A stretch of DNA of 64,000 bases from an uncultured Planctomycetaceae bacterium (GCA_963833985.1 CAWIAD010000001.1:384001-448000), one strand, 5' to 3'; positions 40,978-53,278 are shown, counted from the first letter of the stretch. Translations and numbers: made by a program. The notes: a model not told the origin generated them from the sequence alone.

Positions 40978-41006
40978 TTGATCCGCTGTGCGCGGAGTTC
41001 TATAAT
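40978..41006 (+). promoter_or_regulatory. Sigma70 promoter of the feo operon
   Basis: TTGATC (40978-83), 17-bp spacer, TATAAT (41001-06). Confidence 0.8.
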
Positions 41007-41010
41007 TGCT

Positions 41011-41029
41011 ATTGAGATTCAATCTCAAT
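41011..41029. promoter_or_regulatory. Fur-like operator (perfect 9-1-9 palindrome)
   Basis: ATTGAGATT-C-AATCTCAAT, just downstream of the -10 box and upstream of iron-uptake genes. Confidence 0.8.
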
Positions 41030-41112
41030 TGAAACGCCTTCGCGGCGGTCTCCGCGATGAAGAAGTGGTGTTCAAGAACCGGCTCCGCACTTTGGAAGAG
41101 CGAGTCACAGGC

Positions 41113-41388
41113 ATGAACGCATGGGGCAAGGCGGTCAGGAAGGATGCCGACAACGAACTGATTCCGCTTTGCCGGCTGCGAGCGGGCCAGGGTGGTTGCA
41201 TTGGCCACATTGTGGGTGGTTGTGATATTGTCCACCGTCTGCGTGAAATGGGGCTTTACGACGGTGCCCAGGTTCACATGGTCCGTCCCGGAAGCCCCTG
41301 CATCATTCGTCTCAGGGGGCAACGGCTCGGCTTTCGCATGGATGACTGTGCATGCGTGATGGTACGCGTGGGTGCGATGGCTTCCTGA
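41113..41388 (+). CDS. feoA: Ferrous iron transport protein A
   Basis: HRLREMGL..G..V.MVRPGSP.IIRL.G.RL motif. Confidence 0.9.
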   Translation: MNAWGKAVRKDADNELIPLCRLRAGQGGCIGHIVGGCDIVHRLREMGLYDGAQVHMVRPGSPCIIRLRGQRLGFRMDDCACVMVRVGAMAS

Positions 41389-41415
41389 CGGACTGGAACA
41401 GCAGGCCGGGCAAGT

Positions 41416-43698
41416 TTGGCAAGCTCCTTTTCTCTTCATCCCCTCCAATTGATGCTTCCCGCCGATCGCAGCACCTGGATCATCGCCCTGATCGGCAACC
41501 CGAACACGGGGAAGTCCACGCTCTTCGGCGCCCTTTCCGGTATCCCCCAGCGCGTGGGAAACTATCCCGGCGTGACCGTGGAGAAAACGGTTGGTGCGGT
41601 AGCGCACGCCGGCAGCCGCTGGACGCTGGTGGACCTACCGGGAACCTACAGCCTGGCTCCCCGATCTCCCGATGAGATGGTCGCGGTCGACGTCTTGCTG
41701 GGCAGGTCGGCCGATCTTCCTGCACCTGACGTCCTGGTGTGCGTGGTGGCGGCGAACAACCTAGAGCGCAACCTTTACCTCGTCAGCCAGGTGCTCGAGC
41801 TCGGTCTGCCCGTGGTCATCGCTCTGTCCATGCTCGACGTGGCGCACGATGATGGGCTGGAGGTTGATCCCGCCCGCCTGAGCCGTCAGCTCGGCCTTCC
41901 TGTCGTGCCGGTCCAGGCGCATCGCCGCCTGGGATTGGACGAGCTCAAGGACGCAATTGCAGAGGCCGCGAAGCAACCCGGCGCGAGTCCCGCGAGTCCG
42001 TTCCCGGCTGCATTTCGTGCCGAGGTGCAAGAGCTCGAAGCGCTGCTCGCCACAGCCAACGGGCATGCCGGGGAGCACCACTTGCCCCGCTACCTCGTCG
42101 AGCGGTTGTTGCTGGATACCGGCGGCTACATCGAGAGCCACCTTCCCGCTCTGACGAGCCGACCGACCGTGCGCGACATGCTTGCGCAGGCGCGCGAAAG
42201 GTTGAGCCAGGCCGGTTTCCCGGTTCCGGCCGTCGAGACCATGGCCCGCTACGCCTGGGTGTCGCGCGTGCTCGAAGGTGTGGTCGTTCATCCCGCCGAG
42301 CCGGCAAGCACCTGGGGAGACCGCCTCGATGCGATCCTGACGCACCGCGCCTGGGGCCTGCTGGCGCTCGCGGTGGTCTTGCTTCTGGTCTTCAGCGCTG
42401 TCTTCTCCTGGGCACGATGGCCCATGGAAGGGATCGAGGCGGCGATCGGCTGGCTCTCGGTACAGGCCGAGACCCGGCTGCCGGACGGCCCGTTGCGCAG
42501 CTTGCTGGTGGACGGCGTGATTGGGGGCATCGGCGCGGTGGTGATCTTCTTGCCCCAGATCTTCATCCTCTTCCTGATGCTCACGAGCCTGGAAGAATGC
42601 GGATACCTTGCGCGTGCCGCGTACCTGATGGATCGGGTGATGGTCCGGTTCGGGCTCAGCGGCAGGTCGTTCATCCCCTTGCTCTCCTCGTTCGCCTGTG
42701 CGATTCCGGCCGTGATGGCCGCGCGGGTCATCGAGAACCGGCGCGACCGGTTGACCACCATCCTCATCGCCCCGCTCATGAGCTGCTCCGCCCGCTTGCC
42801 GGTGTACACGCTGATGATCGCCGCGTTCATTCCCGACCGCAGGTTCGCGGGGGGACTGATCGGTCTCCAGGGCCTCGTCCTGCTGGCGATGTACGTGCTG
42901 GGCGTGGTGGTGGCCGCCGTTGTGGCACTGGTCCTGAAGCGAACCCTGCTCCGAGGTGCCGCTCCGCCGTTCCTCATGGAGTTGCCCGCCTACAAGTGGC
43001 CCGCGCCGGGGGTCGTGCTGCACCGGATGTTCGACCGGGGCTGGGACTTTCTGCGCAACGCGGGCACGATCATCTTCGCCATCTCCATCGTGATGTGGGG
43101 TGCGCTCTATTACCCGCGCATCTCCCCGCGTGACCTGGCGCCGCTGGCCGCGGAGCAGGCGCGCCTGGAGCACGAGCGCGACGACGCCCGGACCGCCGGC
43201 CACGTGGAGGCAGCGCAGCGCGCGAGCGCCTCTCTGACGGCCATCGCCAACCGCGTCGAGGGCGCCGAGAAGCGCCAGAGCCTGCTTGGCCGCGTGGGCC
43301 GGCTCATCGAGCCCGCCGTGCGGCCGCTCGGTTGGGACTGGCGCATCGGCAGCGCGGTCATCGCCTCGTTCCCCGCACGCGAGGTCGTGGTCGCCACCCT
43401 CGGGGTGATCTTCGACGTCGGCCGCGACATGGATACGCCCGAAGGAACGCAGAAGCTGGGCGACGCTCTTCGCTCGGCCTGCTGGGCCGACACCGGCCGG
43501 CCGCTGTTCGACGTTCCCGTCGCGCTCTCGATCATGGTCTTCTTCGCCCTTTGCGCCGAGTGTGTCTCCACGCTTGCCGTCATCGGCCGCGAGACGGGTG
43601 GCTGGGGCTGGCCCGCGTTCACCTTCTGTTACATGACGGTGCTGGCCTACGCGGGAGCGTTTCTCATCTACCAGGCCACGCACTGGCTGGGAGCGTGA
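41416..43698 (+). CDS. feoB: Ferrous iron transport protein B
   Basis: GNPNTGKST, VGNYPGVTVE, DLPGTYSL, GYLARAA, SCSARLPVY and AREVVV. Confidence 0.96.
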   Translation: MASSFSLHPLQLMLPADRSTWIIALIGNPNTGKSTLFGALSGIPQRVGNYPGVTVEKTVGAVAHAGSRWTLVDLPGTYSLAPRSPDEMVAVDVLLGRSADLPAPDVLVCVVAANNLERNLYLVSQVLELGLPVVIALSMLDVAHDDGLEVDPARLSRQLGLPVVPVQAHRRLGLDELKDAIAEAAKQPGASPASPFPAAFRAEVQELEALLATANGHAGEHHLPRYLVERLLLDTGGYIESHLPALTSRPTVRDMLAQARERLSQAGFPVPAVETMARYAWVSRVLEGVVVHPAEPASTWGDRLDAILTHRAWGLLALAVVLLLVFSAVFSWARWPMEGIEAAIGWLSVQAETRLPDGPLRSLLVDGVIGGIGAVVIFLPQIFILFLMLTSLEECGYLARAAYLMDRVMVRFGLSGRSFIPLLSSFACAIPAVMAARVIENRRDRLTTILIAPLMSCSARLPVYTLMIAAFIPDRRFAGGLIGLQGLVLLAMYVLGVVVAAVVALVLKRTLLRGAAPPFLMELPAYKWPAPGVVLHRMFDRGWDFLRNAGTIIFAISIVMWGALYYPRISPRDLAPLAAEQARLEHERDDARTAGHVEAAQRASASLTAIANRVEGAEKRQSLLGRVGRLIEPAVRPLGWDWRIGSAVIASFPAREVVVATLGVIFDVGRDMDTPEGTQKLGDALRSACWADTGRPLFDVPVALSIMVFFALCAECVSTLAVIGRETGGWGWPAFTFCYMTVLAYAGAFLIYQATHWLGA

Positions 43699-45501: not shown

Positions 45502-46236
45502 CTACTGCGCGATGAGCGTGGCGATCAACCCGGGCGGCTTCGTTCCTGGAACCACCACGCGGTCGCCGGGGAAGAGCTGGTAGTTCGTGAGCGTGTCGCC
45601 GCGTTCCCGGATCCCGCACCAGTCGATCTTGAGCACCTGGTCGGGAGTGCCCGGCGGGTGCGGACGCACCAGGTAAGCCTTCTCCGGCAGGCTGTTCGAC
45701 CGCAGCCCGGCCTGGAGGATCGCGTCCAGCACGGTCTCGTTCCCCTTGATCGGGAACCGTCCCTGGGTGGTCACCGCGCCCATCACGTAATAGTACTTGC
45801 TCTGCACGTTCGCCAGGCGGACCGAGACCCGATATGGCTGGTCGATCTTCTGTCCCTGTTGCATGGCAACCGCACGGAGCTGCTGCGCGATCTTCTGCTC
45901 GACTTGCTCCAGCGTGAGCCCGACGACATACACATCACCGGCGAAGCCCAGGTCGATCACGCCGTCCTGCTGGACCGTGAAGGAACCTGGATTCCAGTCT
46001 GGTGGCATGGGCCGGACCGCGATGTCCAGCTCATCGGGCGGCTCGACGACGTACGTTGGCATCGTCACCTTGTCGAGCTCGCGGGCCTGCTGAGGGTCGA
46101 TGTAGCCGTGATCGGGGATACGTCTGGCTTCGTGCTTACGTCCGGTCCCCGCACAGCCGGGAACCAGCACGAGCCAGACCGCCGCGACAAGCGCGCAGAT
46201 GCGCCGGGGTTGGGCGGAATGCATCCCTGCGATCAT
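45502..46236 (-). CDS. Polysaccharide export (Wza/SLBB) lipoprotein
   Basis: Lipobox VPGC; YVVEPPDEL, VQQDG.IDL, GNETVLDAI and NYQLFPGDRV. Confidence 0.88.
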   Translation of the reverse strand: MIAGMHSAQPRRICALVAAVWLVLVPGCAGTGRKHEARRIPDHGYIDPQQARELDKVTMPTYVVEPPDELDIAVRPMPPDWNPGSFTVQQDGVIDLGFAGDVYVVGLTLEQVEQKIAQQLRAVAMQQGQKIDQPYRVSVRLANVQSKYYYVMGAVTTQGRFPIKGNETVLDAILQAGLRSNSLPEKAYLVRPHPPGTPDQVLKIDWCGIRERGDTLTNYQLFPGDRVVVPGTKPPGLIATLIAQ

Positions 46237-46469: not shown

Positions 46470-46727
46470 ATGGAAGACATTGAAAAGGTCGTGCATGGCT
46501 ACATCTTGAACGAGTTCTTGCCCGGGGAGGACCCCGCGGAACTGACCTCGCGCACCCCGCTGATCACAGGCGGGATCCTGGACTCGATCACGACGCTCAA
46601 GCTGGTGGTCTTCCTTGAAGAACACTTCGGCATCACGGTCGAGGCCTACGAGGCCGGCGTCGAGCACCTGGACTCGATCGGCCAGATCGCCCGGCTGGTC
46701 GCCGAGAAGGCGAAGGCGGCCGCCTGA
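46470..46727 (+). CDS. Acyl carrier protein
   Basis: GILDSITTLKLV.FLEEHFGI phosphopantetheine motif; small acidic protein. Confidence 0.88.
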   Translation: MEDIEKVVHGYILNEFLPGEDPAELTSRTPLITGGILDSITTLKLVVFLEEHFGITVEAYEAGVEHLDSIGQIARLVAEKAKAAA

Positions 46728-46756
46728 TACGTGGAAACCTTGGCATGAATTCGCGT

Positions 46757-46873
46757 GTAGGGTGTGCCCAGCGCAGCGACGACGCACCATGCCGTTCCCA
46801 CGAACAGCGTGCCAGGTGTGGATCCGGCTCAATGAGCAATTCGGTGCGTCGTCGCAGCGCTGGACGCACCCTC
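46757..46873. repeat. GTAG-type REP doublet (inverted pair)
   Basis: GTAGGGTGTGCCCAGCGCAGCGACGACGCACC ... GGTGCGTCGTCGCAGCGCTGGACGCACCCTC between convergent genes. Confidence 0.85.
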
Positions 46874-46989
46874 CCAGCCAGCACCGTGGGACCCACCAAT
46901 CCGGTCGAATCGCCAATGCGGCCAGGGACAATTCCGGTCCATTCGAGGGCGTTCAATCGGCCGGGGCGGCGAGTGAGCGGCCGGGCGGG

Positions 46990-48613
46990 TCAAATCTCTT
47001 GCAGCACCAGGCTGCTCTGGCGCAGGTACTGAACCAGCTCACGGGTGAGCGTGCCGGAATTGTCCATGCGCGGCACCTTGTTCTGGCCGCCCAGCTTGCC
47101 GCGGGACTGCATCCAGGAGTTGAACGATCCCGGCCGGGCGACGATGAGCGACGGCAAGGGGAGGCCCACTCCCGCGCGCGATGGGCCAGGTAGTCGGCGT
47201 TGCGGCGCGCGAGGTCCGCGTCGAGCCGCCGGAGGAAGTCCTCGGGGCCGGCGGGCCTGTCGAGGAACTCGATGACGTACTGGTGATATCCCAGCGCTCC
47301 CTCGAAGACCGGGCCGACATGCCACTCGCGGACGGCCGCGCCGGTACCGGCGGAGGCAGCCGCGATGGCCGCCTCGATCTCCTCGCTGATGAGATGCTCG
47401 CCGAATGCGGAAAGCGTGTATCGCGTCCGCCCCGTGAAGGTGAAAAGCGGCGGGTCGAGCGACTCGAACCGCACCGTGTCGCCGATGATGTGCGCCCACA
47501 TCCCCGCGCACGTGGAGACCACGATCGCGTAATTCACTCCCTGCTGCGCCGACCCCAGCCAGTGCCGTGTCGGGCTCGGCGCATCGAGCTCTGCCACGGG
47601 CACGAACTCGTAGAAGAGCCCGTGGTCAACGATCAGCCGCAAGAGCTCGGTCTTCGGGTCGCCAAACGCGATGAACCCCTCGGAGCAGGGATAGGTTTCC
47701 TGGAGGCGGATCTGCGGACTTCCCAGGATTTTCTCGAAGGCCGAGCGGTACGGGTCGAATTTGACCCCGCCGTGAACGACCAGCTCCAGGTCGGGCCAGA
47801 CCGCGGCGATGCTCGAGGCCCCGGTACGCTCGAGCACGCGTTCGAAGAGCGTCAGCAGCCAGCTCGGAACACCGCTGATCAGGGTGATTCGTTCACGAAT
47901 GCTCAACTCAGCGAAACGCGCCAGCTTCGTCTCCCAGTTGGATTCGAGCGCCAGTGCCACCGGAGGAAATGTGTAGGGCGCAGCAGCGGAGAGAGTTCCA
48001 GGGCCGCGATGCCGCTCAGGTCGCCCTGGCGCACGCCGGGCGCGGGCTCTTCCAGGAGGGCCGTTCCACCCAGGAAGAAGAGGCGGCCGTGAAAGAGCCG
48101 GGAATCCGGCCGGGCAGCCAGGTGCGCGGCCACCATGGTCTGGGCCGCCTTGCGGTTCGAGACGACCATCTCGCGGGAGACCGGGATGTACTTGGTGGCG
48201 CCCTGGGTGGTTCCGCTGGTCAGTGCCAGGAACGGGATGCGGCCCGGCCATGTGAGGTTCTCGAAGACCGGATAGCTGAGGCGGAGATAATCGTCCCAGA
48301 GCGCCTCGTAGGTTCGCAGGGGAACGGCTTTCTGGAACCCGTCGATGCCGTCGATGCGATCGAACCCGTGGTCGCGGCCGAACCGCGTGCCGCGGGCGGT
48401 ACGCACCAGCCTGAGCAGGGTCCGCTCCTGGGCGCTGCGGGCATCGAGCGTCTCCAGGGTAGACCGGCGCAGCCGCGCATGCAGGTGGAACCCGGCATTG
48501 ACCAGGTGCCGGACCGGGCGAGACCCGGCGAGACGTACGACCGTCGCACTGGTGTTCGCAAGCTCCCGGTGCGGCGGTCGATCGACGGACTCAGGCGCTA
48601 CGGTGCTGTTCAT
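46990..48613 (-). CDS. GH3 family acyl-acid amido synthetase, frameshifts at ~47970 and ~47175
   Basis: TSGTT..KYIP, SGVPSW, YPCSEGF, IGDTVRF, GRT..FGE and GKLGGQNKVPR across three ORFs. Confidence 0.9.
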
Positions 48614-48619
48614 CGCCGG

Positions 48620-49198
48620 TTAGATCTGCGGTTTGACCCTCCGGCAGAAATACGCGCCGGCCGGGGGCAGGTTGCGAGGCTCGAAAGCGAACCGGACCTC
48701 TTCGAAGAACCGGCGGTAGAACCGGAGATAGACCCAGGGAAGCTCGGTGATCTGGTTGAACGTCCCCTCCGGCTTGAGGACCTGGCGAACCACCCGGAAA
48801 AGGTCGAACTGGAGCGCGCGCGGGAAGGAGGGCACGGGTAAGCCGGAGACGATGTAGTCGGCCTGGCCAATGCCCCGGTCGGCCAGAATCGCGGCCAGGT
48901 CGCGCACATCGCCCTCGACGATCTCCAGGCCGCCGGTGCCCGGGAAGCGCTGGCGGAGCAGCGTGCAGAAGTCGGGGTCGCGCTCCAGCACCAGCACTCG
49001 GCAGCCGGGCACGGCACGGGCGGCGAGCACCCGGGTGATCGGTCCGGTACCAGCGCCCAGCTCGACGATCACCCGCGCGCTGGCCCAGTCGATGTTGCGG
49101 ACCGTGGTGCGCGACAGCCAGGGGCTGCTCGGTGCCAGGCTGGCAATGGCGGTTCCCTGCTTGAGGAACTTGCCCAGGAACAGTGTGAAATCGCTCAT
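48620..49198 (-). CDS. olsG: PmtA-type lipid N-methyltransferase, probable OlsG (ornithine lipid N-methyltransferase) homologue
   Basis: APSSPWL, VELGAGTGPIT, IVSGLP and RNLPPA are rhizobial PmtA-family motifs. The olsG assignment is inferred from taxon and context. Confidence 0.6.
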   Translation of the reverse strand: MSDFTLFLGKFLKQGTAIASLAPSSPWLSRTTVRNIDWASARVIVELGAGTGPITRVLAARAVPGCRVLVLERDPDFCTLLRQRFPGTGGLEIVEGDVRDLAAILADRGIGQADYIVSGLPVPSFPRALQFDLFRVVRQVLKPEGTFNQITELPWVYLRFYRRFFEEVRFAFEPRNLPPAGAYFCRRVKPQI

Positions 49199-49246
49199 CG
49201 TGACTTTGTGAACCCCGGCTCCGCGGACGCAAGGCCGGCCTCTGGA

Positions 49247-50149
49247 TCACAGGCTCCCGTGTACCGGCCGCGACAGACTGGTGGCGATTCGAGACTTCGG
49301 CTTGGGCCGGCGGGCACGCTCCAGGAAGCGCTGGGGATCCAGCGTCGGGGGAACGACCTTGAGCTTGTCCTTGAGGTAGCGGACCACCAGTTGATTCACC
49401 AGGCGGGCCTTCTCGATCTGTGGCGCGTGGCCGCATTTGGGGATGACGACCTGACGGACCTTGAGGATCGCGTCGGCCGCGCGGATCGACCCGGGCACGT
49501 CGGAGATTACCAGGTCTCCCGCGCCCCAGATCACCAGTGTCGGGTGCGGCACGAGAGGGAGCAGGTCAGCCACCGAGTGGCCCACGGTACCCCGCAGGGT
49601 CCGCAGCACGCCCTTCTTCCACTTGCGGTCCTGAAACTTACGCTCGAACGCCTTGACAAGGTCTTCAGTGGCGAACCGTCCCTTGTGGAAGACCGACTTG
49701 ACCAGCGTGTCATACTGGCTGCGCTTCACGCCTTCCATGGCTGGCAAGTTCTCGTCTCCGTGAAATCCCGACGGGCAGATCAGCACCAGGCGGGAAACGC
49801 GCTCCGGGTGTTTCACGGCGTACTTGAGAATGACCTGGCACCCCAGGCTCGATCCCACCAGGTGGTAGGGAGGACGCTGCACGAACTGGTCCAGGTACAC
49901 CGCGAGCTGGTCGGCCAGGTAGTCGATACTGACCTCGCCTCCCGCATCAATGTGGGCATGCAGCGTATCACCGTCGTACACGAGGATCTCGGGGACCTTC
50001 ACGTCGAAATGGCGCGACAGGTGGCTCCTGTTGGCGAACCAGCTCTCGGGCTGCTCGGCCAGTCCGTTAACCAGGACAAGCGGTGCCCTGCGTTTGTATG
50101 TATGCAGCAGGCGGGGTAGGTCGAACCACTTGCGAACGTTGGGAGGCAT
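49247..50149 (-). CDS. Alpha/beta hydrolase or acyltransferase
   Basis: LVNG, GSSLG nucleophile elbow, WGAGD and GHAPQIE. Confidence 0.88.
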   Translation of the reverse strand: MPPNVRKWFDLPRLLHTYKRRAPLVLVNGLAEQPESWFANRSHLSRHFDVKVPEILVYDGDTLHAHIDAGGEVSIDYLADQLAVYLDQFVQRPPYHLVGSSLGCQVILKYAVKHPERVSRLVLICPSGFHGDENLPAMEGVKRSQYDTLVKSVFHKGRFATEDLVKAFERKFQDRKWKKGVLRTLRGTVGHSVADLLPLVPHPTLVIWGAGDLVISDVPGSIRAADAILKVRQVVIPKCGHAPQIEKARLVNQLVVRYLKDKLKVVPPTLDPQRFLERARRPKPKSRIATSLSRPVHGSL

Positions 50150-50503: not shown

Positions 50504-51523
50504 ATGAGAGTCTTCATCACCGGCGGTTCGGGTCTCATCGGCCGCCACCTGGCCAGCGCCCTGGTCGGGTCGGGACATCAGCCCGTGATCCTCTCGCGGC
50601 ATGCCGACGCCGTGCGGCGAAAGCCGGAATTCCGCAGCTACCAGGTCGTCCAGGGGGACCCGACCACCGAAGGCCGCTGGCAGGAGGAGGTTGACGGCTG
50701 TGACGCGGTCGTGAACCTCGCGGGCCACAACCTTTTCGGGGATCGCTGGAACAGCGAAGTGAAGCGGAAGATCCGTGACAGCCGGGTCCAGGCTACCGAT
50801 CAGGTGGTCGCGGCAATCCGCAAGGCGCGGACGAAGCCCGGGGTCCTGGTGCAGGCCTCCGCCATCGGCTATTACGGTCCGCATGGTGATGAGGAGCTGG
50901 ATGAAACCAGCCCGTCGGGATCGGATTTCCTGGCCGTGGTCTGTCGCGAGTGGGAGCAGGCCGCCGAGCCGGTCCGGGACATGGGGGTGCGCCAGGCCAC
51001 CGTGCGGGTCGGCATCGTCCTGGCACCCGGAGAAGGGGCCCTGGCCTTCATGACCCCGATTTTCAAGCTCGGGCCGGGAGCGCCCATCGGCAGTGGCGGA
51101 GGCCTGCTGGGCACGGGGCAGCAATGGATGAGCTGGGTGCACGTCGACGACATCGCCGGGCTCTTCCAGATGGCCGTCGAGAACCCGCAGGCCGCGGGTC
51201 CCATCAACGGTACGGCGCCGGCTCCGGTGCGCAACGCCGAGTTTTCCAGGACACTCTCGGCAGTGCTCCGCAAGCCCTACACGCCCTGGCGGTTCTTCGT
51301 GCCGGTGGGACCGCCGGACTTCGTCCTGAAGCTCATGCTCGGTGAGGTCGCCGGGGTGGTCACCGCCGGCCAGAAGGTTCTGCCGGCCAGGGCCGCGGCG
51401 CTCGGCTACCACTTCCGCTTTGCGGATCTTGAAGCGGCGCTGCGAGACGTCTTCCGGCCCAGGACCGCCCCCGCGTCGCGACGTCATGAAACCGCGGCTG
51501 CCGGGGCCGGGTCGCATCACTGA
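50504..51523 (+). CDS. TIGR01777 family NAD-dependent epimerase
   Basis: TGGSGLIG, VNLAG, SAIGYYG, FLA.VC.EWE and GQQWMSWVH. Confidence 0.93.
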   Translation: MRVFITGGSGLIGRHLASALVGSGHQPVILSRHADAVRRKPEFRSYQVVQGDPTTEGRWQEEVDGCDAVVNLAGHNLFGDRWNSEVKRKIRDSRVQATDQVVAAIRKARTKPGVLVQASAIGYYGPHGDEELDETSPSGSDFLAVVCREWEQAAEPVRDMGVRQATVRVGIVLAPGEGALAFMTPIFKLGPGAPIGSGGGLLGTGQQWMSWVHVDDIAGLFQMAVENPQAAGPINGTAPAPVRNAEFSRTLSAVLRKPYTPWRFFVPVGPPDFVLKLMLGEVAGVVTAGQKVLPARAAALGYHFRFADLEAALRDVFRPRTAPASRRHETAAAGAGSHH

Positions 51524-51554: not shown

Positions 51555-52880
<1,326 letters not shown>

Positions 52881-53278
52881 CAAACCACCCCGCGGCCGGC
52901 TGATCGCACGCCCGGAAATGCCGTGCTGCACTCGCGCCTGTCACTGCTGGCCATCATGCCACCACAACAGCGGCGCATGCCTGAGAGTGATGGTCACAAT
53001 AACAGATTGCCCAGAACCTCTCAATTCTGGGCTATGGCAACACCGAACGCCACACAAAGACATGGAAACCGCGGCACGATCCTTTCCCTGTTGCTCACAA
53101 TCGGCCTCACACCGATCTCCAATGGTCGTTCCGCATGCCGGAGGGGCGGGCCGCGGCGACGAGAATGTTAAGACACGCGCCGCGGACTCGACTCCCTCTT
53201 GCGGCCACCCGCCCTTTGACGGGACCATGGAGTTCTGCCCGGGTGGGGCAGGCCACGGCGAATCGGAAAGGAAAAAAC

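Follow-up and report, generated by a model that had tools for sequence, protein, structure and literature searches.

A Likely Member of the olsI-olsG-olsH Operon Family in a Planctomycete Genome, and a Neighbouring Carrier Protein That Likely Belongs to a Separate Proline-Loading System

Gene Content of the Locus

The window analysed here is a stretch of 64,000 nucleotides (CAWIAD010000001.1:384001-448000) from GCA_963833985.1, the genome of an uncultured Planctomycetaceae bacterium. The system in question lies at positions 46470 to 50149 and consists of three closely spaced genes on the minus strand and a gene for a stand-alone carrier protein that faces them. The genome is 10.16 Mb long, in 2 contigs, and 96% complete. 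Because the nearest relatives of the carrier are labelled Isosphaeraceae, the genome is a likely member of this family, as far as the carrier sequence can tell.

The trio starts with olsI (49247..50149, minus strand), which encodes an alpha/beta-hydrolase-fold ornithine-lipid O-acyltransferase of 300 amino acids (aa) and is preceded by AGGAG. After a gap of 48 bp follows olsG (48620..49198, minus strand) for an ornithine-lipid N-methyltransferase of 192 aa, and after a further 6 bp olsH (46990..48613, minus strand) for a GH3-like lyso-ornithine-lipid synthetase, which is spread over three frames in the assembly. The carrier gene (46470..46727, plus strand, 85 aa, NCBIfam label ACP_for_OlsHI) is convergent with olsH, at a stop-to-stop distance of 262 bp. 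On its other side and divergent from it, a Wza-like polysaccharide export gene is found (45502..46236, minus strand; Pfam Poly_export, E 2e-13). The coordinates agree with the initial annotation, made from the DNA alone, which placed a minus-strand trio opposite an acyl carrier protein (ACP), and the NCBIfam scores given below show that the gene assignments are not due to chance. The tight spacing of the trio also stands, but two single-base deletions in olsH were overlooked there. A scan of the locus for promoters and terminators returned 0 promoter-like and 3 terminator-like sites, which is the level of chance.

The Trio as an olsI-olsG-olsH Operon

All three proteins match enzymes of ornithine lipid synthesis from Singulisphaera acidiphila. 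OlsI scores 467 bits with NF052614 (cut-off 385) and is identical to the S. acidiphila protein at 205 of 281 residues (73%). Its residues S101, D212, and H241 are invariant in 13/13 aligned sequences and probably constitute the catalytic triad. OlsG scores 357 bits with NF041658 (cut-off 350), with 144 of 189 residues identical (76%). For olsH, the Pfam and NCBIfam matches are distributed over three frames. NF052613 aligns at its positions 3-196, 190-464, and 461-522 with 319, 513, and 90 bits, so that no single frame reaches the cut-off of 620 bits. The three pieces are identical to S. acidiphila OlsH at 125/188, 193/265, and 34/60 residues. Across them, GH3 nucleotide-binding motifs 1, 2, and 3 are all present, as is the serine essential in OlsH (S115). 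The first two are the same as in OlsH; the third resembles its counterpart and differs from it at two places.

That the methyltransferase acts solely as PmtA, on phosphatidylethanolamine, is very improbable. OlsG is related to PmtA and, in E. coli, methylates phosphatidylethanolamine too (PMC12971839), but the PmtA model gives the protein of the window only 61 bits against a cut-off of 250. Its score with the OlsG model, its identity to OlsG, and its fixed position between olsI and olsH all argue against that assignment.

The initial annotation had suggested a check of the genome for olsB and olsF and of relatives for conservation of the trio. The families PF13444, which we take to be that of OlsB, and PF19576, presumably that of the OlsF N-acyltransferase, have 0 matches in this 96% complete genome. 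Among 40 relatives searched, an olsH orthologue, defined by a best E below 1e-70, was observed in 25. The genes olsI, olsG, and olsH are adjacent and in the same order in 23 of these (in one, G003, across two contigs), and in the remaining 2 olsG adjoins olsH. Second copies of olsH are seen in two relatives (G018:C156:44084-45640 and G015:C7:237051-238614).

The pathway of S. acidiphila is described in PMC12493201, where Sinac_1601-1600-1599 form one operon. Given ATP and Mg2+, OlsH joins free fatty acid and ornithine to N-acyl-ornithine, and it requires neither ACP nor coenzyme A (CoA). To rebuild ornithine lipid in E. coli extracts, only OlsH and OlsI were used. Deletion of olsH in S. acidiphila led to the loss of trimethyl-ornithine lipid and to slower growth; an unidentified lipid, which carries no ornithine label, was also gone. 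The OlsHIG pathway and OlsG are taken as established in a review (PMC12971839) and in PMC5352709. In the organism studied here, OlsH would convert a fatty acid with ATP to acyl-AMP and then to N-acyl-ornithine, OlsI would O-acylate the N-acyl-ornithine, and OlsG would N-methylate the resulting ornithine lipid, each step being one shown in S. acidiphila.

It is quite likely that the trio is orthologous to the published olsI-olsG-olsH operon and makes N-trimethyl-ornithine lipid, with the carrier in a separate proline-loading system. The roles proposed in the initial annotation fared well: formation of N-acyl-ornithine by the GH3 protein independently of OlsB and O-acylation by the hydrolase-fold protein have been shown for the S. 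acidiphila orthologues, and methylation as the last step matches the S. acidiphila pathway (PMC12493201). The same chemistry being already in print there, the trio does not represent a newly found candidate for such a pathway. The pathway is known, published in 2025, and the operon in the window is one more member.

The genome encodes a second GH3 protein, about 25% identical to OlsH, from an intact gene at L142:1901-9221 (G000:C1, near 1657652-1666200). Ahead of it lie genes for a carrier, two ketosynthases, and a hydrolase, and DUF1571 comes after it. Distant GH3s similar to it occur in many relatives. As a replacement for OlsH it was rejected, given the low identity and its place in a ketosynthase cluster.

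Upstream of the trio, a YfcH-type epimerase gene (50504-51523) is divergent from olsI and is kept beside olsI in many relatives. It is followed by a Ser/Thr kinase gene (51555-52931). Iron transport genes feoA-feoB, at 40990-43698 of the window, are ordinary.

Frameshifts in olsH

DNA alignment with relatives placed the two single-base deletions of olsH near 47975 and 47176. As written in the assembly, the gene stops at 47903 after 236 aa, ahead of nucleotide-binding motifs 2 and 3. The background of such shifts was measured with 175 open reading frames that came from 20 stretches of 20 kb at even spacing in a genome of the same genus (G004). A match was found for 133, and 78 were orthologue-like (at least 55% identity, at least 60% cover). 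Of the 78 genes, 14 carry frameshifts in this assembly, with a total of 16 shifts over 94 kb (0.17 per kb), versus 2/82 genes in the reverse control.

The ratio of nonsynonymous to synonymous substitution rates (dN/dS) of olsH is 0.12-0.24 against 11 relatives; it is 0.09-0.22 in 9 pairs of relatives. Relative-rate tests showed no excess in 7/7 cases (chi-square 0-2.25). By these sequence measures, olsH is under purifying selection, and its breaks are recent because dN/dS is like that of relatives and the rate shows no excess.

The high background of frameshifts, together with purifying selection on olsH, makes assembly error the likelier cause, and the two deletions are probably errors of sequencing or assembly. 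True inactivation of olsH in this strain, which would leave it with no ornithine lipid by the OlsH route, is unlikely. What speaks for inactivation and against error is the coincidence of two deletions in one 1.6-kb gene, with a chance of ~0.03 at the genome-wide rate; two shifts in one gene were found in 2 of the 78 test genes. Apart from the background, inactivation is countered by the lack of in-frame stops in the matched pieces ahead of the natural end, by intact olsI and olsG, and by the slower growth of the S. acidiphila knock-out (PMC12493201). Purifying selection without rate excess also argues against it, although a very recent loss would look alike. With about 1 in 5 test genes shifted, split genes elsewhere in this genome call for caution.

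Relatives and Neighbours of the Carrier

The carrier is the single one of its type in the genome, as searched with tblastn. It scores 152 bits with NF052616 (ACP_for_OlsHI; cut-off 130), and its D38-S39 is invariant in the alignment. Its top matches in PDB are the peptidyl carriers 2MY5, 6CXT, PltL (2N5H), and PigG. D-alanyl and fatty-acyl carriers rank below them.

Homologues of the carrier were collected at 63 loci from 15 of the 64 parts of the collection, a few of them shared with another retrieved set, and were grouped by hand into 21 planctomycete and 42 more distant loci. A gene for a ligase, an oxidase, an MBOAT-like protein, or an SGNH protein, the candidate partners described below, is present at 43 of the 63 loci and olsH at 9; olsH occurs together with such a partner at only 1. 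The 42 more distant loci include 37 with a partner gene and 0 with olsH, and proline ligase and oxidase are clustered with the carrier in distant homologues. In three genomes of one distant genus, the ligase comes immediately after the carrier, and a GH3 search at E<=1e-50 found nothing. In the planctomycete loci, a Wza-like gene lies beside the carrier at 15 of 21, versus 9 of 21 for olsH.

Within the family, the carrier is at 17 kb from olsH in 1 genome and on other contigs in 6. In 7/7 family genomes with the carrier far from olsH, a Wza-like or phosphodiesterase gene stays beside the carrier, and the gene downstream differs from olsH. Carriers from loci that have no ols genes also pass NF052616 (L068, 133 bits; L064, 137 bits). 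Three genomes of another family (f5), 97-99% complete, contain olsI-olsG-olsH; the carrier has no match there, and what matches the ligase and the oxidase is weak and generic. Thus, the carrier is not a required companion of olsH and olsI. In a sample of 200 genomes of the phylum, GH3 matches (E<=1e-50) were found in 27, none above the OlsH cut-off, and the carrier (E<=1e-20) in 3, with no overlap; since it is not established that those GH3s are OlsH, this is weak evidence.

Two observations concern the neighbours. The divergent Wza-like gene could hint at a polysaccharide acceptor. A gene of the alkaline phosphatase superfamily (PF01663; 520-570 aa; L062:4340-5971 and equivalents) is located directly upstream of the carrier, on the same strand, in 9 of the 21 planctomycete loci, and it is not beside the carrier in the window genome.

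Candidate Partners Elsewhere in the Genome

A PltF-like ligase was found by tblastn at G000:C2:5234103. Its pocket region is nearest to PltF (E 3e-50) and PigI (2e-35), both proline ligases. With the residue numbering that we assume, nine of ten pocket residues agree with PltF. The ligase gene lies in a row at L138:7564-12721 (G000:C2:5231563-5236720), where genes for an MBOAT-fold membrane protein and an SGNH protein are upstream of it and a weakly LpxL-like gene (E 0.008, below the cut-off) is downstream. Two SGNH-TPR genes follow the row on the opposite strand. The membrane protein was assigned by fold search only: its model has a pLDDT of 92, and its Foldseek matches are MBOAT structures, DltB first, while Pfam PF03062 and a PDB sequence search gave no MBOAT identity. 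A PigA/RedW-like oxidase is encoded at G000:C2:4390295-4391440 (L139:6296-7441). An AcpP-like protein is also encoded elsewhere in this genome.

These genes are dispersed. In 13/13 loci, the ligase has no carrier of this type at a distance of 1.5 kb or less. In G014, G017, L066, and S. acidiphila, oxidase and carrier are separated by 4-12 kb (12 kb in the last), and the oxidase is unlinked in the window genome. S. acidiphila also has the ligase (74%). In 24 genomes of the family, the carrier is present in 22, the ligase in 23, the oxidase in 22, and the MBOAT-like gene in 23. Beyond the family, 16 further genomes of the class gave no match to the ligase, the oxidase, or the MBOAT-like gene under the thresholds applied, and only weak ones to the carrier (E 1e-15 or worse, in 5 genomes).

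Role of the Carrier

Its relatives and neighbours make it likely that the carrier works in a Dlt-like acylation system that uses a proline-derived group, and not with OlsI. With slightly less confidence, it is probably the prolyl or pyrrolyl carrier of a split Dlt-like system that decorates an envelope molecule throughout the family, S. acidiphila included. In such a system, the PltF-like ligase would load L-proline on Ser39 of the carrier, and the PigA/RedW-like oxidase would oxidise the carrier-bound proline towards pyrrole-2-carboxyl. The MBOAT-fold protein and its SGNH partner would then pass the pyrrolyl group to an envelope acceptor. The position of the carrier beside olsH would then reflect a gene order passed down in one family. 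A literature search for pyrrolyl-MBOAT or proline-derived envelope decoration found no paper describing it, with the subscription literature mostly outside its scope.

Several observations weigh against this assignment, and most of them favour the carrier as a dedicated acyl donor for OlsI, or as the supplier of a 3-hydroxy acid to OlsH, which is nevertheless unlikely. The NCBIfam name and score tie the carrier to the ornithine lipid pathway. Each of the 22 family genomes that contain olsH also contains the carrier, at less than 300 bp in 13 and at less than 3 kb in 2 more, and in S. acidiphila it lies 2.8 kb from olsH. The donor of OlsI is left open in PMC12493201 as "acyl-CoA or acyl-ACP"; in the accessible text of that paper, ACP appears twice, as a possible unknown donor and as not needed by OlsH. 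Moreover, the oxidase falls under the family cut-offs of PigA (408 of 500) and RedW (403 of 650), and the pattern of presence and absence is not independent, since it comes down to a single family boundary plus three genomes from one further family. The genomes are kin, and therefore the pattern counts as one or two events, not many. The role as OlsI donor is, however, opposed by the synthesis of ornithine lipid in E. coli extracts without the carrier (PMC12493201), by the three genomes with olsI-olsG-olsH and no carrier match, and by the 7/7 genomes where the carrier, far from olsH, keeps its Wza-like or phosphodiesterase neighbour. NF052616 also accepts carriers away from ols genes, an AcpP-like protein is encoded elsewhere in the genome, and no fatty-acid-loading enzyme is beside the carrier. 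The participation of an ACP in the lipid pathway, on which the initial annotation speculated, is not supported, given the two-enzyme reconstitution, an OlsH that needs no ACP or CoA, and relatives and partners of the carrier that point to proline loading.

The two systems might also be linked, with OlsI or the LpxL-like protein moving a prolyl or pyrrolyl group from the carrier onto lyso-ornithine lipid. The conserved adjacency of carrier and olsH, the weak LpxL-like match below its cut-off, and the additional lipid lost in the olsH knock-out (PMC12493201) would fit such a link. That lipid was, however, not labelled by ornithine, carrier clusters outside this family have no olsH, and olsI-olsG-olsH occurs without the carrier, so the link is highly unlikely.

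The carrier is thus probably outside the lipid pathway. If the carrier is a proline carrier, the curated family name ACP_for_OlsHI is wrong, and the acyl donor of OlsI is to be sought among AcpP, acyl-CoA, and phospholipids. S. acidiphila, now genetically tractable, would then hold the complete set of parts for a proline-derived envelope acylation system that is as yet uncharacterised.

Comparison with Known Systems

The closest system to the trio is OlsH/OlsI/OlsG of S. acidiphila (Sinac_1599-1601), with the same three genes in the same order and strand and 57-76% identity. S. acidiphila has the same carrier nearby and likewise lacks an OlsB/OlsF-type match. The window differs in the two single-base deletions of olsH in the assembly and in the distance between carrier and olsH, 262 bp versus 2.8 kb. 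A phosphodiesterase gene precedes the carrier in S. acidiphila but is not beside it in the window. The OlsB/OlsA and OlsF pathways lead to the same lipid product as the trio, but with unrelated enzymes that use acyl-AcpP and whose presumed families, PF13444 and PF19576, are without a match in this genome.

For the carrier and its candidate partners, the modules PltF/PltL/PltE and PigI/PigG/PigA offer the nearest sequences: PltL and PigG are among the PDB matches of the carrier, PltF and PigI are nearest to the pocket region of the ligase, and the PigA and RedW models are nearest to the oxidase. Unlike in those modules, the genes here are dispersed, and the oxidase is below the family cut-offs. 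The Plt and Pig modules belong to polyketide synthase/nonribosomal peptide synthetase lines, whereas here the coupled partners would be MBOAT-fold and SGNH proteins. How Dlt and Pat systems use MBOAT-SGNH transfer is set out in PMC12148441, whose accessible part does not mention proline. Unlike Dlt, the system proposed here has a proline-type pocket, an extra oxidase, and an MBOAT protein undetected by PF03062 or PDB sequence search. It shares with Dlt (DltA/DltC/DltB/DltD) and with MBOAT-SGNH acyltransferases the combination of a ligase, a carrier, an MBOAT fold, and an SGNH protein.

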